From Macrostomum lignano (taxonomy: Eukaryota): DNA of 64,000 bases. The notes below the pieces were generated by a model. The model was not told where the DNA came from and did no database searches. It saw only the letters and a list, made by a program, of their open reading frames with translations. The stretch spans positions 138,566 to 202,565 of the forward strand of contig NIVC01000048.1 in assembly GCA_002269645.1 (NCBI GenBank), read 5' to 3'. Position numbers and translations under genes: made by a program. Position 1 is the first letter of the stretch. Every line of letters starts with the position of its first letter. This document shows positions 29,931-62,256 of the stretch, one piece after another.

Positions 29931-32900
29931 CGATCCCTAACTACAGTGCCGTCTATCAAACCCTCTCAGGCGCGCAGTCCAGCGGCAACTTCGACTCCGC
30001 CATCTACACAGGCAGCAGCTCCCAATTCGCCGGCTACAACGCGTTCCCGCCATCAAGGTTCCTGAAGCGGCAGCACCACGGCCAGCAGCAGCCGCAGGCT
30101 CTGCAGCTCAAGCACCCGCCCGAGTCCAGCCGCTTCGCCGCTCTCCGAGGATCCCGCGGACACGAGGCTGGCAGCGGAGCCGGCGCCGATGCTTCCGCTG
30201 GCATCGGTGGTGCCCCCGCCAGCCCAAGGTGATCACCGTCATCAAGGACGGTCAGCGGCCGCGCCAGGTGGTGAAGATCCTGCTGAACAGGCGCGGGGTG
30301 CAAAGCTTCCAGCAGCTGCTGGCCGACATCTCCGACTCGTTCGGCGGCGGACGGCGCGGCGGGCGACTTCGCCGACTGTGGAGCATCGCCGGCAGGGACG
30401 TTCGGGACGTCGGCGACCTGTTCCGCGACGAGGAGATCTTCGTGGGCAGCTCCGGCGAGGAGGCGATGACGCTGGATCGGGTGTCCGACCTGCTGGACGA
30501 GTTGTACCCCGGGAACGCCGAAGTCAAGTCGTTGCTCCGACACTGGGAGCGCCGGCTCCGACGCCAGCAGAAGCGACGCGGCAGCAAGGGTCACGTGACC
30601 GCTCAGCAGCAGCAGCAGCAGAAGCAGTCTCGGCAGCCGCAGCAGCTGCCGCCTCCGCGCGTTGAAGAGCGAGACAGCGGCTACGAGGAGGCTGAGGGCT
30701 CGGCGTCCACCCCGACCTCCGGCGCCGCTCCGCTCCGAGGCGAGCCGCTGCGCCAGGCTCTGGCAGCCCGGCGGCATTCGAAGCCGCTGCCGCTGATCCA
30801 CGAGCCGCCATCGCAGCAGCAGCAGCAGCCGCAGGAGCCGGAGGAGATCAGCCGGCAGCAGAGGCTGGCGGAGGAGCAGCGACTGGCTGATGAGGCAGCG
30901 ACAGCGAAGAAGGACAAGCAGCGCCGGTTGGGTAAACAGCGCGAGACTCCGGCAGGGAAACAACAGCAGCAACAGCAGCAGCAGCAGCAAGCCAAGGGTC
31001 GAGTTGTGTTGCCACCGATCCAAGCCTCTTCCAAGGAGCCGCAGACTGCTGAGAAATCTCGAAAAGCAGACGAGAAGCAGGCGCGCAAGGAGAAGAAGCA
31101 GCAGGAGGAGCAGCAAGAGGAGCAGCAGCAGCAGGAAGCTGATCAGGCACTGCCGTCGCTTCCGCAGCTTCCACCGGAACCTGCCGCCGTGGCAGCCGCC
31201 GACACAAAATCTCCCAAGCACCCATCGCCAAGGCAGCTTCAGCAGCAGCAGCAGCAGCAACATCAACAGTCAAGACGGTCATCCACACCGAAACCGGAAA
31301 CTCCGGTGGCTCGGGTCCTGTCCCCGGTGCGCGAGGAAGAGAAGGAGGCCACGGCGGCCACAACGGCCACCACTGCCGCAGCCACTGTCACCGCCACCGC
31401 TACCGCAGCAGCCGCCACGCCATCTGATGAAGCTTCCAGCGTCCAGGAGACGCCTAGGAAGCCTGATGAAAAGAAGGACCAGCAACAGCGGGCGTCGGCC
31501 AAGGAGAAGGTCAAGAAGGAATCACCTCAACGACAAACTCTCAAGACTCCCAAGAAGAGCGCATCGAAGAAGCGTCAGTCGGAGAGTGAGAAGCCGGAAG
31601 AGCCTCAGCAGCAGCCGCCGGCCCCGCCCGACTCCCAGCGGCCGCTGATTCGCCCCATCTCATCCAGCCGGTTCATCAACGAACGCTTCGAACTGGGCAA
31701 AACCATGGGCGACGGCAACTTCGCCATCGTCCGGGCCTGCGTCAAGAAGGAGAGCCGAAACGAATACGCCATGAAGGTGATTGACAAGTCCAAGCTGCGC
31801 GGCAAGGAGCACATGGTGATCAATGAGGTTCGCATCATGAAGATGTGCCAGCATCATAACATTGTCCGCCTGGTAGAGGAGTACGAGACTCGCACGGAGA
31901 TCTACCTGGTGATGGAGCTGGTCAAAGGTGGCGACCTGTTTGACGCCATCAGTCAGGTTGTGAAGTTCAACGAGACCCAGGCGGCTCACATGGTGGCTGA
32001 CATGGCCAATGCGCTGTTCTACCTGCACAGCAGGAATATTGTGCACCGGGACCTCAAGCCTGAGAACTTGCTGGTAAGGGACAAGTTGATACCTTGTAGG
32101 GATTACAGTAATTACTCTTTGTTGGGAGTTCAGAGTGTAGGAGCCTAATTTCTAATTTGGGGACATATTAGGGATTATGGATTTGGGATCTGGGATTTGA
32201 GAGCATTCGGGATCTGGGATTCTGGGATCTGGGACGTGGGATTTGGGATCTGAGATCTGAGATTAGGGATCTAGGATCTTGGATCTGGGATTTGGGATCT
32301 GGTAGTGTTATGGGAATATGACGCCATTTTATCTTCCATCCGCAGGTTTACCGCACCAAAGACAATCGGATCAGCTTGAAACTGGGCGACTTCGGTCTAG
32401 CGATGGAGGTTGAGAAGCCGATTTACACAGTCTGCGGAACCCCTACCTATGTTGCTCCGGAGATTCTGGAGGAGAGAGGCGAGTATTGCTATTGCTTCAC
32501 TTCTAGACGTAACCTTGATTCTCTTATGGCTAACTGGATCGGTGTTTGGAAAGAAATTAGACGGATGAAATACCGGTTTTAACTAGTGAAACATCCAATT
32601 AGACAGGTGAAACATCCAATTAGACAGGTGAAACATCCAATTAGACAGGTGAAACATCCAATTAGACAGGTGAAACATCCAATAAGACAGGTGAAACATC
32701 CAATTAGAGTGGTGAAACATCCAATTAGACAGGTGAAACATCCAATTAGACAGGTGAAACATCCAATTAGACAGGTGAAACATCCAAGTAGAGTGGTGAA
32801 ACATCCAATTAGACAGGTGAAACATCCAATTAGACAGGTGAAACATCAAATTAGACAGGTGAAACATCCAATTAGACAGGTGAAACATCCAATTAGACAG

Positions 32901-44587: not shown

Positions 44588-47421
44588 TGAGGGGCACTAA
44601 AAAGTTCTAAGCCTGACCAAGATCCCATGGTCACAAAGCACTGAAAATTGATCCTTTAACACAATATGTTAATGTTTTGACAAAAATTTCAGCTCTCTAG
44701 GCATTACTAAAGTTCCATAGGACCTTAATATTTTCAGCTACCTATGGCAAATTCTCAAGAACTAAAAATGAAGTACAGGATAGTGATCAAATTTCTGACC
44801 TTAAAGGGCTCAAAAGCTGCTGAAATCCAAAGTTGCTTGGCTGCCATATATCCTAGGGCTGCCCCCTCATATGCCACTGTCAAGCATTGGGCAGCCAAGT
44901 TCAAGCGTGGCCCCGACTCTCTCAACAGGGTGACCGCGCTCCAGTAACTTTTTTCTTCCCTGACTAAACTAAATTTTCCCTGACACACTAAAAGTAATAG
45001 AAGAAGCTCAGTGATAGTTGTGCACAATAATTTTATTGCAACAAACTGTTGCGCATTAAAAAGTCAGCAATGTTGAGATTAATTTAATTTGAATTGAAGT
45101 TGAAACAGCGCATGTATTGGCAATAATTTGTTTGAATTAATAATGAAAAATTAATGCACCGGAAACTGACCACAAAAAACGTAGTGTTTGATAAAAAATT
45201 GCATGAAAAATATCAAGTACTAACTTTTATTGTATGTGGCGCACAGTAAAACAAAGTTAAGAGATGTAGCACTGTAGTTAAAATTGAGTTCAATGAGGAA
45301 TCGTACCTTCAAGTGCTACAATCTCTTTCTCTACCTTCTCCACTTCTTCCTTTTTCTGTTGTGCAGCACGACGCAGTGCATTTGACTTCACGAGTAGGCT
45401 CATGTTTGAATCCGTCTCACGTTGGTACACGAGGCTATCCGCATCTTTGGTGAGAACTGCAACATCAAGCAGGAGCTTCTTTTGCTTCGACTGGAGCTCC
45501 AGCACCGTTGCATCCTTCCTTTTCCTTGATTCCTCGTATTTCCGATGAGATGCTTCTGCTCGCTGCTGCTCCAACATGGCCCTGTACCTACTCCTGGCAC
45601 TTCTCACACTCTTCAACATCTCCTCGGTAACTTTCGCGATGATTTCAGCGGCAGTCTTTCCCTTTTGCCACTCGTACACAAGTCGGAGAGAACGAATGCT
45701 CAATCCCTGAAGATTTGGTTCTAGGCACTCTTTGTTGACACTGAAGCCGCGCTCAACAGCAGCATTCCCATGGAAGGTTGTCAGAACCATCTTCACAATG
45801 ATCTGCAAATTATTGGTACTCGTTGAATCAGTGAAGAGGGAAGCAAAGAGGACATCAAGTCGGTCTGACTTATAGTCGAATTGAGACAGCTGAAATCGAT
45901 GCTCACGAACTGTAACAGTTCGAAACTGGGTGAACTCGGACTTTGCAGCGTCAGCTTCCTGTGCAGTGATGCGTCCCTTAGTGTAGGCTTCCAGGACAAG
46001 CGCATCAAAATCCGCTTGAGCCGGTGATGAGGATGGTGGGTCACTATCCAATTCTGCCACCAGCACAGAAAAACAAAATATACACCTTTCTATTAATGGC
46101 CTGGTTAATATATTATCATAGTATGGACTATATATTTTACTGTCAGTGTGATTAGCACAGCAATTATAGATTAGCAATATGTAGGCCTACAAGCCCATAA
46201 ATTATTCATTTAAGAACAAGTATCTGCCAATTTCAAATAAATACCAGCTTTTAAAAACAAAAATACATGGAACAAACAAAACAGATTTACTATTTGAGCT
46301 ACTTAGTGCTATCGATTAGCCGCTTTCTTGTCTCACAATTTTTTTCTTCAATTTTCTAATTTACTTTCAAATTTTCCCTGACTTCCTAAGAATTTCCCTG
46401 ACTTTCCCTGACTTTCCAGACCACATTTTTTTCCCTGACTTTCCCTGACTTTCCCTGACCGCGGTCACCCTGCTCAAAGATGACCCTCGATGTGGACGCC
46501 CTAGACTGCTGTCACTGCTGATAACATCCAGCACATCCAGGCCCTGGTTGATGGCGACTGGCGGATAAAGGTCAGGGAACTTGCAGTAGACACTGGGCTT
46601 TTTGACCTACAGGTCATTAAGATCCTGCACTAGCATCTTCATCTGTCGAAGGTCTCAGCCTGATAGATCCCACAAATCTTGACAAGCAACCAGAAGTCCG
46701 CGTGGTTGCAGTATGTGAAGCTTGTCCTGCAAACTTACAATCTAGATCCTGCCAGCTTTTTGTCTTGCTATGTGACCAGTGATGAGACATGGATCCACCA
46801 TCATGATCCTAAGTTAAAGAAAGAGTTGAAGCAATGGCTGCCAGTTGGTGCACCTGCACCACTGAAGGCACAGTCTGGATGCAATGCAGGCAAGATAATG
46901 CTCACTATCTTTTGGGATGCCAAAGGCCCACTGCTACTAGACTTTTTGCCACACAAGCAGACAATCACAGGTGCCTACTATGCCAATCTAATTGCCCATA
47001 TGCGCGAGGCAATCAAGGAGAATTGGCGGGGAATGCTGAGCCGTGGTGGTGCTGCTGCACGACAATGCACCTGCTCACACCAATGGGCTGGCAAAGGCAG
47101 CTGTCAATATTGCAGGGTTCCAAGAGCTGCTACACCCTGCCTATTCACCAGACCTTGCCCCAAGTGACTTTTACCTATTTCCGCATCTTAAGCCAGCACT
47201 CTGTGGGCAGCAATTTGACACCAATGAGGCACTGAAGGATACTTCAACCTTCTGGTTCAAGGGGTGCTCAAAGCAGTTCTTTCAGAGTAGCATCAAAGCA
47301 CTGCGATCAAGATGTCACAAGTGCATCTTGGTCAAGGAAGACTATGTAGAAAAAACTGATTGCATTTGCCCCAATTCTCTTTTTTTCATACTGAGGCTCA
47401 GAACTTTTTTAGTGCCACTCA
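44588..47421 (+). mobile_element. Mariner (DD34D) element, pseudogenised and interrupted by a nested element
   Basis: TA TSDs (44586-87, 47422-23); TIRs tgaggggcactaaaaagttct / agaactttttttagtgccactca; N-terminal MANSQ...WAAKFKRG at 44744, resuming KDDPRCGRP at 46473; TSDETW, HDNAPAH, YSPDLAPSDF, KCILVKEDYVEK. Confidence 0.95.
44926..46472 (-). mobile_element. Internally deleted hAT-like element with 5-bp TSD (hAT5-like), retaining the last transposase exon
   Basis: 13-bp perfect TIR CAGGGTGACCGCG; TSD ctcaa at 44921-25 and 46473-77; subterminal ttccctgac repeats; ORF 45290-46177 contains FHGNAAVERGFSVNK (hAT-type S/ERxFS dimerisation motif), with an acceptor near 46053. Confidence 0.85.
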
Positions 47422-47426
47422 TACAT

Positions 47427-47822
47427 GCGCAACTTTGGGAATCACCCGGCCGTTTCTATTGGCAACACACACATGTAAGTCGCTATTGGCTGAGAGCAGT
47501 CACGTGACTACTACTCCGTCCAATAGCGACTTACATGTGTGTGTTGCCAATAGAAACGGCCGAGTGAATCCCAAGGTTGCGCCCAAGCATGGTGCCACTT
47601 GTATCTTTTGTTCTGGTGATCCATTCCAAATAATTTCATTTTACATAGTTTTATAGTAGCAACTAGAGATAGAACAAATATTTCGTTCCATTCCTTTGCA
47701 ACATGCACATGTAAGTTGCTATTGGACAGAATATTAGTCACATGACTGCTTTCAGCCAATAGTGACTTACATATATATGTTGTCAATAGAAACAGCTGGG
47801 TGATTCCCAAGGTTACGCATAT
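47427..47822. mobile_element. MITE-like element whose inverted arms are themselves hairpins
   Basis: 63-bp stem 47427-47489 / 47520-47582 (3 mismatches); degenerate inverted copy of the hairpin at ~47695-47820. Confidence 0.65.
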
Positions 47823-53072: not shown

Positions 53073-53864
53073 CAGTATTGCCAATGCCACTCCAGTGAGT
53101 TTTAATCGCTGAGCAATTTTTTGTCATATTCAGCAATTTTCAGCGATTTTTTATTCTAGGCATTAGAATTGTGGGATTCTGGGGGTAAGAACCGTGAGAT
53201 TCTAGGAGTAAGAATCGTGAGATTTGATGGTAGGAATCGTGAGATTCTAGGAGTAAGAATCGTGAGATTTGATGGTAGGAATCGTGAGATTCTGGGAGTA
53301 AGAATCGTCAGATTCTAGGGTTAAGAATCGTTGGATTCTAGGAGTAAGAATCGTGAGATTCTGATGGTAAGAATCTTGAGATTCTGGGGGTAAGAACCGT
53401 GAGATTCTAGGAGTAAGAATCGTCAGATTCTAGGGTTAAGAATCGTTGGATTCTGGGGGTAAGAATTGTGAGATTCTAGGAGTAAGAATCGTGAGATTCT
53501 GATGGTAAGAATCGTGAGATTCTGATGGTAAGAATCGTGAGATTCTGATGGTAAGAATCGTGAGATTCTGATGGTAAGAATCGTGAGATTCTGATGGTAA
53601 GAATCTTGAGATTCTGGGAGTAAGAATCGTCAGATTCTAGGGTTAAGAATCGTTGGATTCTGGGGGTAAGAATTGTGAGATTCTAGGAGTAAGAATCGTG
53701 AGATTCTAGGGGTAAGAATCGTGAGATGCTGGGAGTAAGAATCGTCAGATTCTGGGAGTTAGAGTCGTGAGATTCTGGGAGTAAGAATCGTAAGATTCTA
53801 GGGGTAAGAATCTTGAGATTATGGGAGTAAGAATCGTGAGATTCTAGGGTCGGTGGCAACACTT
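53073..53864. mobile_element. Non-autonomous hAT element filled with a 23-bp minisatellite (gtaagaatcgtgagattctagga)n
   Basis: Termini cagtattgcca and tggcaacactt; 8-bp TSD tcacactg / ccacactg (1 mismatch); array at 53165-53848. Confidence 0.7.
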
Positions 53865-54549
53865 CCACACTGGTCAGTTGCACCTTTAGACAATTGACAA
53901 ACTTGTAGCAGGTCTCTTGACTCAGTGACTTTACTGCAACTAAAACTGCTGAAAATCACTTTCATACAATTGAAAAATGCTTGTAGGATAGGTTGGTGTC
54001 CCGTAAATAATCACTCCACATCAGTAGTAGCTAATAGAAAATGATGCGCATACTCCAATTTTTTATTGCAAAAAAAGTAGTAAGGTACCCGTCAGAAATT
54101 CTACTACGCACATACCACATTTTCCTATTAAAAATTAAATAGTAAGGTACCAAACCAGCTGGGACAGGGTATTCTACAATAATCCTCACTACACAGTCTA
54201 CACTGCCTGCACCCACAAAGAACAAAAGAAAAGATCTCAATAAATTGTGGGAGTCAAGTTCTAGCAGTCAATTTTCATGCTTCCCCCAAGCTACCAAAAC
54301 GCAGTTCAGAACAGCGCACAGACAGCAAATAAAGTCAGTTTTTTACACTCGCTCCATAACACATTGTCTTCTCTATCCCCCAAACAGTGAATTCTAACTA
54401 AACAATCTACTACCCATAAAGAACGAAAGAAAAGACCGCAATGTCGATCAACCAAGCTGGCCAAAAAATGTTTCTTGATATATTTCTGCATAACAATTGA
54501 ATATATGCAACACATTGCATTGTATTGCATTGCATTGCAAAGCATTGTA

Positions 54550-55077
54550 GGCAAAAATACGCATGCCAAAACTCATTTTCTCGACGAGGCCCACAACCAA
54601 GAACACGCGTTAAAAGAGAATCAGAGGGTACCACCATGAGTCAGTTTGAAATACAAATAAAACAACACCCGAATACCGCAATGACCAGTTCGATGGTCCT
54701 GAATAGCAAATTGGCTGTAGGTCCAATTCTGAAAACCCCCACAATCCCGCCCCAACCACCGTCTAATATTTTCCGGGGGATTTCAACCAAGCGAATCAAA
54801 ATACTCCCCAACTCTTCGTCCACGACGACCCCCAACTCGCTTGCTACTCACCCAAACCACCACCCAATGCCTACCAGGAAGATACGAAGAAGTCTGTAAT
54901 TGCCACAAAGAAATAGTCTCTACCATCTAACGGTAATTGTCTAAGAGCTCTAATCGAGTCCTGATGATACATACACACCTGAAAAGACAACACCAAGCAA
55001 TCCCATATATAGATTTGTAATAATTGACCGCAAAATCTATCCCTGACACCCTGCAACATGTTCAGCTTCACTTCCAT
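54550..55077 (-). pseudogene. Adenain-like (peptidase C5) cysteine protease of Polinton type
   Basis: After joining frames: YFFVAITD..SYLPGRHWVVVWV (catalytic His), EYFDSLG*NPP (Asp), WTYSQFAIQDHRTGHCG (Gln and Cys); contains frameshifts and a stop. Confidence 0.85.
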
Positions 55078-56240
55078 GCTGTACCCGGCACGACGTCGTG
55101 AAGCTCCGTGATCTGCAGCTCCTTGTCAAATAGACCGCAGAATATTACATTGTACTTACAGACAACGCTTGTTGCCTGAGCAAGTGCAACTCCAACTTTA
55201 CATTCCCTTCCTTATAGAGCTGAGCACTAATGCCCGACACCAGGCTCGCTTCCCAACGCAAACGCGAAAATCAAGTATCGATCCACTGCCATAGTCCTCC
55301 ATTGTGAAGCCAACGTCTCGTCCTTGCAGATACAACCCCAACTGCTGCAGCAGATTGGTATATTCTCTCACACAACTACCGGCACCAATTTTTTTGCATA
55401 GGTCGCGAAGGGACAGACTCCCCGTTAACAAACACAGAAATGCTGCTGAGACTTGCATGTTCCGCCTATTCACACAGTTGAATGGGTTTGTATCCATACT
55501 TCCGTTGAAAACCTTGTTGTTCACGAAGGCTACTAGAAGTAACCTCGGCACCTCGTTCTGCTGCTCGTTGCTGCTTGTTGGGAGCGTGGTTGTTGTTGTC
55601 AAAGCGTATCGTGGCAACGTTGGGTGTTGAAGTATGCAGAAATTAATTCATTCTCGTTGATGGCAGCGGCAGTGGTAGGCGTTCTCGGTCTAGCCATTCT
55701 CACTTTTAGGCGCATTAAAGTTCGTAGTACTCGTAGTAACGAAGGAGGACCCAGCTGTGTGAATAGGCGGTAAATCGAGTCGCGCAATTGAACCAACAAG
55801 CCGCCAGGTGGCAACAGGCGCTCCGCGTCACCACCGTCCTGGCCAGGTATAAACACCAAATAGTTGATCAGTCCTCGGTGAGCTGACTCGCGCAATTCAA
55901 CCCTTCACCCATCAGGAGGATTGTTGGCAGCAGTTAGTTCGCGAATCGGCCCATTCAGTAGTTCAGGAACGGAACAGAATTGATACGTGTGACGTGTGAA
56001 TGTGCAACTCCGCAAAACGAACGAAACATGCTCTTGCATACAACACACCGTATTAAGGGCTGGAAAGGGAGATAAGTTTTATTAGCCAATGAAAACAGTA
56101 GTAATATTTTCCTATTAAGAGAATAGAATAAAAAATAAACTTTTTTTGTCAGCAGGGGGACGTCACTACAAATAGTAGTAGAAGTTGTACTTGCGAACCC
56201 CAAACGCGAGGGCGTGTCTTTAATAATAGAGGGTGACACG
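55068..56240 (-). pseudogene. Polinton-type major capsid protein (double jelly-roll), fragmented
   Basis: EVPRLLLVAFVNNKVFNGSMDTNPFN, REYTNLLQQLG..GFTMEDYGSG and C-terminal ALAQAT..YNVIFCGLFDKELQI match the Polinton MCP pattern (LPxRxxVAFVxNxAFNGxYxxNPFN); stop at 55068-70 overlaps the protease start. Confidence 0.75.
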
Positions 56241-56879
56241 GTTAACTTTAGTCGACTTTTAGCCCCTCGTTATTTTATTCATCAATCCGCGCGAGTTTGT
56301 AGATCCTATGTATGCAAACGGCTGTCGTCAGCACCTACAAAACGAGTGCCAACATGCACAACCAACAAAATAGATGGTGGTGGTGGTGCATCTCCAAGTA
56401 GCCGCGAGCGTCCTCACTTTCCTGTGGAAAATGCAATACTCCACTTGCATTGGCATTGGGTTTGTTGTTATCCTATGCACACCGTAATTCAACCAATGAA
56501 TGCAAGCGCAGACCTCGTTATATTGGGTCAGAATCTAGCGCTCCTTTACTAGTCTGGTTGCATTTAAGGCACTGGGCCAGGCGGACCTGAATGGTTCTAT
56601 GACCTATAGTCGGCCTAGACACCCAGCTGTGGAAATAAAAATCCATACAATGCAACTTCAAAGAGCTACTTGCCAATGGTCGAAAAAACCCCAGCCGTCA
56701 ATTTACACCAGACACCAGGATGGGCATGGCCACAAATTATTGCCGGCATAGAGACAAAACCAAACCGTCGGCTGGCAAGTAAGTAAAACTCCTTCCACAA
56801 CCGCATCAACAACAACGATTTTTAATAAATAGAATTAATCGTGTTGAAGAATGCTTGTCAGCAGGGGGACGTTATTCCA

Positions 56880-57303
56880 ATAGTAATAGGTGGAAATACT
56901 CACGAACCCCAAACGTGGGGGGCATGTTCAATAGAGGGCCTCTGCCAGAAGCAAGTTGAATGCGTGAGCAGACGCCATGGACCTTTCCATCACCAGAATT
57001 TCGTACTCCGGTTGATCCGGCTCCGGTGAGAGTAGCAATTCTCTCATGTTCTTGTCCCAGTGAAGCAGACAATGGCTCGCACGGATTTGAAAGCCGATTG
57101 CTGAAAGAGATCCTTGATAGAATTCCTCCAGCGAGTTCGTCTCTGCCGGCAGCTTCGGGTGTGAGGTGAACGCATGAACCGGCTCTTTGGCCCCAGAGAA
57201 TCTGCGGTTCCCATTTCTTCAGTCGCGAGTTCAGGGCCAGATTTCTTAGAAGCATTGTTTTGCCTACCGCTACATTTCCCTCGAGAATGTAGGTCCGGGC
57301 CAT
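56880..57303 (-). pseudogene. Deoxynucleoside kinase (dCK/dGK/dNK family), frameshifted
   Basis: MARTYILEGNVAVGKT (P-loop); after a shift near 57190: KEPVHAF...NSLEEFYQ...AIGFQ...ILVMERSMASAHAF (EP, FY, FQ and ERS motifs); a possible C-terminal YLEMHHHHH..WL lies near 56360-56410. Confidence 0.8.
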
Positions 57304-60134
57304 GGCTGGAATTTTTTGCCGATTGTGCTGCTTGTGCATGCTGATGGCAAGCAGTGCATTAACAGATCGAGTTAAGAGATTTACTTTGGTATCGTTTTTT
57401 GTCTCCCATTGCGAAAATCTTCGCAGTATGAAAGACGTTGCAAAAGAGTCTGGGAGTTTTTGACTATCTTATCTGATTGTCTGCAGAAAAAACTTCTGCA
57501 TCGTAGGTTGCCCTAAGTCTCTATAGTTTCCGACACAGCTTTTTAAATAGTGGAAGCTGTTTCTCCCAGGAAACTGAACTTGACCAACTAATGTAGAAGT
57601 TTGAACGTGGACAAAATCGAAATCCAGTTTGTAAATAGTAATTTCGTTAACAAACTGTAAAATCGATGCCACGTCCGCATTCATATTGCGGTAAAAAATT
57701 CTCGGCCTCTCGTTGGGATAAAGCTGAATAGTTGAATCCACAGATTTAAATTTGCACATAGTAGGCTTCGCTTTAAAGACCTTTCACGAATATTACTTTC
57801 GAGCTAACGCTGTCTCAGTCTCGTTTATGCAAAGCTTTTCTCCAGGACAGATTTTCAGTGCGGCACCAAAAATCAGTAGCACCAAGCGCTGAAAGAAGAA
57901 AAGCAAAGGCACAATAGATTTTACCCACAATATAGAAATGTTCCTGGCGAAACCTGGGTGGCCAATGTATTTTGTATCCACAACCGTTTTTAAAAAAATG
58001 AATATCGGATTTGGATTTCGAATTCGGATGTGGATTCGGTTGGCTTCAGAGTCGCTCGATGTGGACTGCTCCGCGGCGGCCGCCAGGTGACGTTGATAGG
58101 CCAGGTCTTTAGACGCCACCCGAGTTCCGCCAGTTGACGTTGAGATAGTTGACCCCGTAGAACTCACCAGTGCCTTGGCCGGGGACGGACCTTCAGCCGG
58201 GACCAGCCGGTCGCTTTGTGTGGCTGCAGGCTTCGGTTTCTTGGGCGCAGGAGGCCGGCAAGGTGCCGCCGGCTTCTTTAGTGGTTGCTTTTTCTTGTAG
58301 CTAGTGGTTCTAGCAAATACTACTTTTTCTCTGCTATTTTCTATAATCCTATATAGGCTGTAAGCAAACTAAGAGCAGAAGGAAAGACTCAGAGCCATAG
58401 TTATTAGGTGGAGCCAGAAATGAGGAAGCCCTACAAGTTAAAACCGATAGTGTTTGTTGATATAGAAGAAGACGAGGAGGGGTATATGCAGGCGCCGCAG
58501 TCCGCAGACACCCTCGCCGACGAGTAGAAACACAAAATCCATTTTTCCTAATTCTTCCCAACTTTTAGCCACAACAACAGTTACAATGGAGTCAACGCCG
58601 ATTAAAGCACCGCCATGCACGTCCCGCGCGGCAATTTTCACCGCGTTGACGCGCTTCATACGCGATGAGTGGTGTCCGGCCCCCTCGGTTGCCGCGAATA
58701 CGAGATTGAGTGAGCTGGCGAGTACTCGACTGGCGACTGGCTGCCAAAGCCTTTATCCGTACATTTTGCAGCTGCACGTTCGCGCTGCATTTACTGCTTA
58801 ATTAAAACGCAGTGTTTCCTGCCTTCCTTTAGCATCTGACTGCTGTATTCCAATCGATTAGAAGTGCTGTGTATCTATTCTAGTCTTTTTCTTCGTGGGA
58901 GGATGCTTTGTCTTTTAATCGCAAGCACAACTGCACCACTATTCTATCGCGTGCAATTGCGTGGACATTCAGTTGCAAAACTACTTGTGCATACGCTACT
59001 CACTATATAAACGGGACGTACATCTGCTTAGTAGCCTATTTTCTGTAGGCTGGACAACATTTTACGCCTAAATCTCCGAGATCTGTAGAGATTGTTGCAT
59101 TGTGTGAGCTTTTTTCTGTGCTTTAAAGCTCACAGCCAGCCCTCGAATTTCCCGCCGGTTACAAAGTAAATGAACAATTCTGGTGCGCTTTCAAAACTCA
59201 AATGAATTTCATTAATATTGTTCATTATTACGTGTACATGCAATGTACAAAAGTCATGTATGTGTAGTAAATGTTCTGTGGTAAAAGTACCAGGTACATA
59301 GACGTCAAGGGAAGCGAATTTTTTATTCTTAGGACCTTGAAGTGGCCATGAAAATTTGCACTAAATGAATTGCAAATGCTCGTTTTTATTCAACTACTAT
59401 AATATATTTGGGTAGTGGTATTTTTACTAGTGTTTAAATCGTATATTCTTTCTTTAAAATAGTATGTTTACGTACTTTCTTAAAAAAACTGCATTCAAAT
59501 TCGCCGCCAAAGTTTTTTGTAAACGTTTGTCTTAACAAAAAATACTCTTAGCTCGTAAGTGAGCAGAAACCGAGAAAACGAGAAAGCCTTTCAATTCAAC
59601 AGTAATATTTTTCCAACTTTGGAAAGTTAACCAAATTCGATATTTGCAGTTTTAAAAGACTTTGTCATTCCCTTAGAGACCCAACAAATGGGAGATTTAC
59701 ATATGTACATGTAAGAACCGTTTAGAAACGAGACTTAGTAGTCTGAAGTAGATCGCCTGACCCTCTGATCGCGGAACGCACGGACTGAGAGAAATCCCTC
59801 TATAGGAGTAAAATAGCTACGTGTAGAAATAAACAGGAATAGAATTCAGTGACATATAACCGCTCAGGCCAGTAAATAGTACATACGGGAGCACGAGATT
59901 TTCCCGCGAGAGTTTCTCGCCGAGGTTTTGCCACGGGGTTTTTCCTGTGGGAATTTTAAGTCAAATCCTGTCTTATGGTCAATGCTGGACTAGATTAGAG
60001 CTAGTCTAGACTAGACATAAACTAGAGACTAGATTTCAAATCCGATTGGATTTGACGACGACGCAGCCCCTCGAAGAAAAATACTAATACAAGCTCGTAG
60101 ATATGCATATGTACGATTTTGCATGTACTTAGGA

Positions 60135-61480
60135 TACACTTCCCAATCACTACTATTCCTAAAACTTGAACTTCCAAAACCCTACACTTCCCAAACCCTA
60201 AAATTCCCAAACCTTAAAATTCCAAAACACTACACTTACTAAACCCTACACTTCCCAAACCCTATACTTCCCAAACCTCATACTTCCCAAACCTTAAATT
60301 CCCAAACCCTACACTTCCCAAACCCTACACTTACCAAAAACCCTACACTTCCCAAACCCTATACTTCCCAAACCTCATACTTCCCAAACCTTAAATTCCC
60401 AAACCCTACACTTCCCAAACCCTACACTTACCAAAAACCCTACACTTCCCAAACCCTATATACTTCCCAATCCCTACACTTCCCAAACTCTACACTTCCC
60501 AAACCCTACACTTCCCAATCCCTACACTTCCCAATCCCTACACTTACCAAACCCTACACTTACCAAAAACCCTACACTTCCCAAACCCTATATACTTCCC
60601 AATCCCTACACTTCCCAAACTCTACACTTCCCAAACCCTACACTTCCCAATCCCTACACTTCCCAAACCCACACTTCCCAAACCCTACACTTACCAAAAA
60701 CCCTACACTTCCCAAACCCTACACTTCCCAAACCCTAAAATTCCCAAACACTACACTTACCAAACACTACACTTCCCAAACCCTACACTTCCCAAACCCT
60801 ACACTTCCCAAACCCTACACTTCCCAAACCCTACACTTCCCAAACCCTACACTTCCCAAACCCTACACTTCCCAAACCCTACACTTCCCAAAACCCTAAA
60901 ATTCCCAAACCCTACACTTCCCAATCCCTACACTTCCCAAACCCTACACTTCCCAAACCCTAAAATTCCCAAACACTACACTTACCAAACACTACACTTC
61001 CCAAACCCTACACTTCCCAAACCCTAAACTTCCCAAAACCCTAAAATTCCCAAACCCTACACTTCCCAATCCCTACACTTCCCAATCCCTAAACTTCCCA
61101 AACCCTAAACTTCCCAAAACCCTAAAATTCCCAAACCCTACACTTCCCAAACCCTAAAATTTCCAAACCTTAAAATTCCAAAACAATACACTTACTAAAC
61201 GCTACACTTCCCAAACCCTACACTTCCCAAACCTCATACTTCCCAAACCTTAAATTCCCAAACACTACACTTACCAAACCCTCACCCTTCCCAAACCCTC
61301 ACCCTTCCCAAACCCTCACCCTTCCCAAACCCTACACTTACCAAACCCTACACTTCCCAAACCCTACACTTCCCAATCCCTACACTTCCCAAACCCTACA
61401 CTTACCAAACCCTACACTTCCCAAACCCTACACTTCCCAATCCCTACACTTCCCAAACCTTCAACTTCACAAACTGTTAA
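60135..61480. repeat. 16-bp minisatellite (ccctacacttcccaaa)n, G-rich on the minus strand
   Basis: About 80 units with variants. Confidence 0.97.
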
Positions 61481-61739: not shown

Positions 61740-62256
61740 GCCTCTGGTGCTAAAGCCTCTGGTGCTTAAGCCCCTTGGTGCTAAAGCCCCTGGTGCTAAA
61801 GCCCTGGTGCTAAAGCCTCTGGTGCTAAAGCCTCTGGTGCTTAAGCCCCTGGTGCTAAAGCCCCTGGTGCTAAAGCCCCTGGTGCTAAAGCCCCTGGTGC
61901 TAAAGCCCCTGGTGCTAAAGCCCCTGGTGCTAAAGCCCCTGGTGCTAAAGCCCCTGGTGCTAAAGCCCCTGGTGCTAAAGCCCCTGGTGCTAAAGCCCCT
62001 GGTGCTAAAGCCCCTGGTGCTAAAGCCCCTTGGTGCTAAAGCCCCTTGGTGCTAAAGCCCCTTGGTGCTAAAGCCCCTGGTGCTAAAGCCCCTGGTGCTA
62101 AAGCCTCTGGTGCTAAAGCCCCTGGTGCTAAAGCCCCTGGTGCTAAAGCCCCTGGTGCTAAAGCCTCTGGTGCTAAAGCCCCTGGTGCTAAAGCCCCTGG
62201 TGCTAAAGCCCCTGGTGCTGGCGCCCTGGTGCGAAGGCTCCTGGTGCTAAAGCCCT
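61740..62256. repeat. 15-bp minisatellite (gcccctggtgctaaa)n
   Basis: About 34 units. Confidence 0.97.

Follow-up and report, generated by a model that had tools for sequence, protein, structure and literature searches.

The deoxynucleoside kinase (dNK) gene described here belongs to a clade of Maverick (Polinton) elements in the flatworm Macrostomum lignano. The copy that was analysed is decayed; complete members of the clade carry dNK directly before the gene for the protein-primed family B DNA polymerase (pPolB), and the enzyme probably feeds that polymerase by phosphorylating salvaged deoxynucleosides. We put the probability of this reading at roughly 70%. It is based on gene order, conservation in five of six families, selection, catalytic residues, a predicted fold and one splice that is shown, while the activities and the cell type are deduced from these.

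The remnant and its complete relatives

The window (the whole 64,000-nucleotide stretch of DNA that was analysed) contains a Maverick remnant at about 54023-58700, the parts of which are collected in Table 1. Judged by its sequence, the element is a decayed, internally deleted Maverick (Polinton) copy, a fossil that is dead. A left TIR was looked for and not found, and the right TIR alone is kept. The dNK remnant is identical to the open 223-codon gene of the complete element C2529 at 327 of 372 bases (88%) and retains 365 of 672 coding bases, the 3' 45% being missing. The motifs reported in the initial annotation (LEGNVAVGKT, EP, FY, FQ, MERS) are present on the minus strand in two frames of a six-frame translation, from the ATG at 57303 to about 56960. 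The extent given there for the kinase, 56340..57303, is too long. The kinase remnant stops at 56938, and 56340-56937 is ruled out as a part of dNK by the end of the alignment to C2529 at 56938 and by the confinement of this spacer DNA to five loci of one family (C48, which is the window, C102, C322, C2529 and C1090). The spacer has an internal repeat (56146-56212 and 56855-56921). Pfam searches with 30 window ORFs of 100 or more codons detected no Maverick gene near dNK.

Table 1. Parts of the Maverick remnant, in positions of the window
Feature	Position	Strand	Remarks
Right TIR	54023..54241	-	AGTAGT terminus on plus strand; 77% to C2529 TIR
Adenain-like cysteine protease remnant	54527..55077	-	Frameshifted; open relative matches Pfam Peptidase_C48 weakly (E=0.045)
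MCP 3' remnant	55071..55551	-	Frameshifted; 427/469 bases identical to C2529
Internal-deletion junction	55552..55585	-	About 11.1 kb gone, comprising most of pPolB, two thirds of MCP and everything between
pPolB 5' remnant, zinc-finger region	55586..56059	-	About 150 codons; starts at TTCCAG acceptor without ATG
Non-kinase spacer between dNK and pPolB	56130..56937	-	Repeat unit of about 110 bases at each end
dNK remnant	56938..57303	-	Codons 1 to about 122 of 223; frameshift near 57195; 3' part including lid residues gone
TTCCAG, splice-acceptor-like	57306..57311	-	Ends 2 bases before dNK ATG
TBP-like gene remnant	57343..57888	-	Found by tblastn; several indels and stops; begins at acceptor, without own ATG
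Upstream early gene, 3' part (likely SSB with acidic tail)	58039..58302	-	80% identity to C2529 orfD
dUTPase 5' region fragment, inverted	58345..58598	+	76% to C2529 27516-27749, opposite orientation
Fragment of leftmost, opposite-strand ORF of the element	58598..58695	+	Last recognisable Maverick DNA on that side

A placement of dNK directly upstream of MCP was also proposed. The two genes are separated by a spacer of about 870 bases and by the first ~150 pPolB codons (56059-55586), and the order dNK-MCP-protease is a product of the deletion in this copy; in complete elements dNK stands 10.6-12.3 kb from MCP. The nearness of the two genes in the window is an artefact of decay, produced by the internal deletion. 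The deleted interval corresponds to C2529 23542 to 34652, and its loss fused the start of pPolB to the final third of MCP.

A DNA search of the genome with the window dNK gives eight matches: the five spacer-bearing loci, C1638, C1157 and C1412. The gene is open, with 223 codons, in C2529 and C1090, and frameshifted in C1638 and C1157. The C1412 match spans 56 bases and is unclassified. C102 and C322 have the same breaks in dNK as the window copy and common host flanks. The three copies thus derive from one insertion, and C102 and C322 are ruled out as independent insertions.

Elsewhere in the window, 29941-32148 (plus strand) is a frame of 735 codons that encodes doublecortin and protein kinase domains and resembles a host DCLK exon, and 46667-47507 (plus strand) is a frameshifted remnant of a mariner-type transposase (Pfam Transposase_1, DDE_3). 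Minisatellite arrays surround the element (52 rows in the window, e.g. 53153-53848, 60135-61474 and 61740-62255).

The complete Maverick at C2529:17164-35936 measures 18.8 kb and has TIRs of 196 bases (96%) and an exact 6-bp TSD; exact 6-bp TSDs are found in three of five TIR-bounded elements. Its genes are, in order, an opposite-strand ORF, a spliced early gene, the TBP-like gene, dNK, the spacer, pPolB, dUTPase, PLA2, ATPase, penton, a protein-X-like gene, an unknown gene, integrase, another unknown gene, MCP and protease. The polymerase matches PF03175 (E=2e-25 in C4619, 4e-12 in C2529). The RVE integrase, the gene for which is deleted in the window copy, matches PF00665 below the curated cut-off (E=7e-6), carries a chromodomain, and is consistent with the TSDs. 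With this integrase and pPolB the element is a canonical Maverick, rather than the Polinton-like virus of the initial annotation. The A32-like packaging ATPase (Pox_A32, E=0.006) and the protease are weak Pfam matches; in metagenomic loci, homologues of both lie next to MCP and integrase, which supports the two assignments. MCP and penton have no sequence match in Pfam, NCBIfam or PDB. They are candidates for the double and single jelly-roll proteins, respectively, by their position and by motifs. A second basis for the MCP label is a set of 48 metagenomic relatives, often flanked by homologues of integrase, ATPase or protease. Scans of IMG/VR with MCP gave no relative. None of the 48 metagenomic MCP loci contains dNK, a result that says little because the loci are short (only 11 are at least 5 kb) and dNK is more than 10 kb from MCP in the flatworm elements.

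A search of the genome with MCP, in which 95 of 486 candidates were scored, returned a clade at 65-100% identity and a distant group at 33%. Six families of the clade were compared, with MCPs that are 67-100% identical. Gene order was mapped in 26 element loci that were fetched. The TBP-like gene, dNK and pPolB stand in a row in five of the six families (C2529, C889/C272, C297, C4619 and C1680/C209/C3805). In the sixth (C2542/C84/C641) the TBP-like gene is followed straight by pPolB, without dNK. This sixth family is the largest group of near-identical copies, so dNK appears dispensable for spread. Copies C2542 and C641 are also without most of pPolB and may depend on helpers; together with about 25 similar loci they likely make up a family that is non-autonomous yet retains its virion module intact. 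The family without dNK forms a group in the MCP tree together with C297 and C2529/C889 (94/99, not starred), and the dNK-bearing C4619 and C1680 fall outside. This placement favours one gain and one loss of dNK, the loss probably in the sixth family; the integrase tree has no resolved branching. The 33% group is a second set of Mavericks with another gene order (C261, C355 and about 25 further loci), and two of its loci have no dNK or TBP match in the DNA retrieved (no more than 9.5 kb for C355).

Comparison of C2529 with C889 shows 61-84% identity for TBP, dNK, pPolB and dUTPase and 90-99.5% for the virion genes. The drop is common to the replication genes, so dNK travels with the replication module; it is also a sign of module exchange. 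There are 48 matches to PF01712 in the genome, of which 29 lie in Maverick loci and 15 are exons of four spliced host genes; the remaining four (C255, C247, C3317, C4208) were left out of the sorting. A TBP-like match lies within about 1 kb upstream and on the same strand at 24 loci of the 48, a count inflated by host duplications. Near-perfect inverted duplications (1.3-4.7 kb, 99% or more) occur at or beside copies (C272:383965-399951, C1090:36570-47863). The C1090 copy is interrupted just after the pPolB start by an AT-rich element (C1090:54500-58400, L016) that has another pPolB (31% to C2529) and a D5-like primase-helicase, with a tyrosine recombinase ORF beyond.

Identity and history of the kinase

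The open C2529 gene matches the Pfam dNK family (PF01712) at E=9e-21 (74.9 bits, cut-off 27). The window pieces on their own match weakly (P-loop piece, E=0.24) or not at all (second piece), and the assignment proposed from them is carried by this open homologue. Pfam Thymidylate_kin also matches (E=3.9e-6), the best NCBIfam match is a dTMP kinase (E=1.6e-8, weak and far under cut-off), and identity to solved dNKs is just 21-25%. These values would fit a dTMP (nucleoside monophosphate) kinase or another P-loop kinase in place of a dNK. That identity is nevertheless quite improbable, with a far stronger match to Pfam dNK, with all 20 PDB sequence matches being dNK, dCK or dGK, and with the EP, FQ and lid glutamate motifs kept. 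The predicted structure (pLDDT 95.7) finds dNK, dCK or dAK at every top PDB match listed, and its best viral matches (BFVD) are deoxynucleoside kinases.

Alignment to Drosophila dNK shows that E52, Y70, Q81, R105, R167, R169, E172 and Y179 are kept, residues that presumably have their catalytic, substrate and lid roles here as well. Drosophila W57 aligns to F. R167, R169 and E172 are invariant among 67 homologues. The specificity positions V84, M88 and A110 of the Drosophila enzyme correspond to A75, L79 and A112 in C2529 and to V/M/C, V/L/A or V/L/S in other families. The hydrophobic residues A75, L79 and A112 predict a pyrimidine-leaning or broad enzyme, not one of the dCK/dGK type. In the proposed reaction ATP would bind the P-loop, E40 would act as base, Q72 and R107 would hold the substrate, and R167, R169 and E172 would close the lid.

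The open dNK is under purifying selection. Synonymous sites are near saturation between families, and pN/pS was therefore taken from close pairs: it is 0.19 (CI 0.08-0.39) for C2529 and C1090 and 0.07 (0-0.25) for C889 and C272. For C1680 and C3805 it is 0.54, with an interval (0.22-1.31) that includes 1. Trees of 160 and 53 rows place 11 Maverick dNKs in one group (SH-aLRT 87 and 94), separate from the first exons of the four host dNK-family genes; three of these 11 rows (P0004, P0007 and P0005, the last from the host) have no visible gene context. Forced union of the Maverick dNKs with the four host genes is rejected modestly (AU p=0.03, from a quick LG+G4 tree with long branches).

These results bear on the possibility that a host kinase gene recently entered this one element by retroposition or capture, as a passenger without a role in replication. 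Host cargo genes, kinases among them, have been reported in nematode Mavericks (PMC11131425, available part), and one flatworm family is without dNK. The position of dNK is nevertheless fixed in five divergent families and the gene is under purifying selection; the Maverick group stands apart from the host genes, as the rejected union indicates, and the DNA search gave no host gene match save the unclassified 56-base one. Near-identity to a host gene and absence from other copies, the marks of a retrocopy, were looked for and neither was found. Recent capture from the host is largely refuted, and the passenger reading as a whole is most improbable. The suggestion that dNK is a conserved gene of the element is upheld. 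An older capture, from some eukaryote or large virus, is possible; the best match outside the clade is 33% identical and the nearest rows are environmental proteins on short contigs. None of 80 dNK loci from IMG/VR contains Polinton genes by tblastn.

The enzyme might also act in a relationship with the host or a co-infecting large virus, for example by depleting nucleoside pools or upsetting their balance to the disadvantage of a helper or competitor virus, and not for pPolB. Nothing direct speaks for such a role, although protist Polinton-like elements can reportedly parasitise large viruses. The linkage of dNK to the replication module, and its recombination with it, make this role very improbable; the supply of pPolB remains the preferred reading.

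The early region and the motif before virion genes

Three features go beyond the initial annotation: the TBP-like gene just upstream of dNK, the dUTPase and a series of splice signals. Open relatives of the TBP-like gene match Pfam TBP (PF00352) in five of six families, three of them above cut-off, and the profile match spans the whole TBP core with its two repeats. The predicted structure (pLDDT 91) has the two-repeat saddle fold, and the first 44 structure ranks listed are TBPs. The C-terminal repeat retains two phenylalanines, which presumably function as they do in TBP, and the N-terminal repeat is altered. Word-index protein searches with the TBP-like frames gave no match.

In all six families the first codon of the TBP homology is one for arginine and directly follows a pyrimidine-rich YAG, and an in-frame stop is present there in one of them. 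The start of TBP is therefore read as a splice acceptor. A phase-0 donor, GT[AG]AG[CT], occurs at a homologous site of the upstream early gene in all six families, and near 58167 (minus strand) in the window remnant; the background for this donor is 15 of 45 Val-Ser pairs that read GTRAGY. From these signals, TBP is likely a C-terminal domain added by alternative splicing to the early, SSB-like protein. The donor-to-TBP joint is not among the joints of the RNA contigs, and run X1 spans the region unspliced. The SSB label is a likely one that rests on a weak lead: the exon-2 domain of the early gene weakly resembles viral clusters, 10-15% of which carry DUF2738, a domain that we take to be an SSB. 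No literature on DUF2738 was found.

The same early gene, the first of the unit, has a different GT-AG intron that is spliced out in four of four runs from four studies of presumed RNA. The donor of this intron is in phase 2, cannot give TBP or pPolB in frame, and was rejected as their source. Contigs, which cannot rank expression, cover dNK in three of the four runs (presumed RNA). In X5, X9 and X10 few or no contigs cover TBP, the spacer and pPolB, a result that speaks neither for nor against, and X1 covers all 30 bins and may contain DNA. The description of dNK as intronless holds for the family of the window copy and fails for the C297 family, in which the gene has a GT-AG insert of 114 nt that the NCBI model P0003 treats as an intron. 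A further intron-like insert is found in pPolB of C2529. TBP-like and dNK sequences share one open frame of 437-473 codons at C297:261439-262845, C362, C1668 and C4380, and a TBP-dNK fusion is possible in the C297 family. At C2529:20548-21594, C889 and C272 the TBP-like frame is stop-free until 140-160 codons into dNK, in another frame from it.

The dNK and pPolB messages may instead be cut from the early transcript by spliced-leader trans-splicing of the host, with the terminal AUG of the leader as the pPolB start codon. In the host, 30% of genes receive a single 35-base leader, which ends in ATG, at an acceptor motif YTNCAG (PMC8629364, available part). The pPolB gene has no ATG in four of six families, and TTCCAG lies at or just before the M-P-x-x-x-C position of the other two. 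All five dNK-bearing families have a YAG that ends 2-9 bases ahead of the dNK ATG, and two public dNK models start at the first whole codon after the acceptor (P0003 N-M, P0005 Q-M), although gene models may begin at acceptors for other reasons. The conserved in-frame cis donor for TBP, present in all six families, could serve pPolB too, and TTCCAG also ends the confirmed cis intron, so the acceptor hexamer cannot tell cis from trans. There is no leader among the loose contig ends listed, and exact look-ups of acceptor-started TBP, pPolB and dNK frames in a protein collection found none of 10. Trans-splicing of these messages is thus a tentative proposal, with the odds leaning somewhat against it. 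A spliced leader as the source of the TBP ATG was set aside after the conserved in-frame cis donor was found.

The motif TATAAG occurs in six elements in 50 sense and 7 antisense copies. Of the sense copies, 33 lie within 150 bases of a gene start, against an expected 10-12%. The motif precedes virion genes and dUTPase, and none is found before TBP, dNK or pPolB.

Related systems and a possible life cycle

The flatworm clade shares with the animal Mavericks/Polintons described as adintoviruses (Starrett et al., PMC8502044, available part) the AGTAGT-ended TIRs, 6-bp TSD, pPolB, RVE integrase with chromodomain, A32-like ATPase, putative penton and MCP, adenain-like protease, PLA2 and protein-X-like gene. 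It differs from them in the genes around pPolB, where it carries dNK, dUTPase and a TBP-like gene. In the available part of that paper, TBP and dUTPase are named only in figure legends on MELD viruses and relatives, and no nucleoside kinase is named. dUTPase is present in three other metagenomic Polintons. In an unrelated metagenomic Polinton (JGI26337J50220_1000007, MCP 31% identical) a TBP-like gene (L185:3227-3733) stands between PLA2 and ATPase. Given these legends and metagenomic elements, TBP and dUTPase are not new in themselves. No dNK in a Polinton was found in the literature searched, although figures, supplements, Repbase and subscription papers could list one; the main texts, in the parts available, of PMC8502044, 10.1101/697771, PMC11131425, 10.64898/2026.10.13.758929, 10.1101/2023.08.22.554363, PMC7805220, PMC10120064, 10.64898/2026.06.19.733378, PMC11161782 and PMC4981718 mention none. 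By its sequences, and within this literature, the clade appears to be a Maverick/adintovirus variant with an unusual, selected toolkit for nucleotide salvage and transcription.

As an enzyme, the clade dNK shares with the PF01712 family (Drosophila dNK, dCK, dGK, TK2) the P-loop, the EP, FQ, ER/DR, lid RxRxxE and YL motifs and the predicted fold. It differs in its own long branch, in F for W57 and in being encoded by a 17-19 kb integrating element. The dNKs of large DNA viruses (iridoviruses, nudiviruses, giant viruses, some poxviruses) have the same fold and likely the same purpose, whereas identity is 18-24% in structure matches (BFVD) and 25-35% to IMG/VR matches. The early region of adenovirus is transcribed in the nucleus by Pol II, alternative splicing joins an upstream exon to replication genes, and dUTPase-like accessory genes are present; the flatworm element probably resembles it in these three respects. 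Unlike adenovirus, with its one major late promoter, the flatworm element has a TATAAG motif at each virion gene, and it also has an integrase and a TBP-like domain.

The proposed cycle would begin with nuclear expression by host Pol II. One early unit would be resolved by splicing into the SSB-like protein, SSB-TBP, dNK and pPolB. Together dNK and dUTPase would raise the dNTP supply and exclude uracil during replication in dNTP-poor, non-dividing cells, and protein-primed replication in the nucleus would draw on the pool so conditioned. The TBP-like domain would read the TATAAG late promoters and turn the virion genes on, and the integrase would return copies to the chromosome. In its fullest form this amounts to a self-sufficient nuclear virus of post-mitotic flatworm cells, which would supply its nucleotides with dNK and dUTPase, use its own TBP, spliced to the SSB-like protein, as the switch for TATAAG late promoters, and have the dNK and pPolB messages of its early operon released, and partly given a start codon, by host trans-splicing. 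The whole of this picture is rather unlikely to hold. The more autonomous lifestyle that was suggested for the dNK-bearing element is plausible, although the most numerous family of the clade is without dNK.

DNA viruses of non-dividing cells carry a nucleoside-salvage kinase and a dUTPase. A conserved, selected dNK next to the polymerase, together with the dUTPase, argues for a somatic, virus-like phase, and so bears on the question of whether the Mavericks of animals replicate in the soma as viruses or exist solely as transposons of the germ line. Macrostomum lignano is well suited to such work as a tractable model whose neoblasts can be distinguished from differentiated cells. Its genome offers complete elements flanked by exact TSDs, as well as sister families of which some have dNK and others do not.
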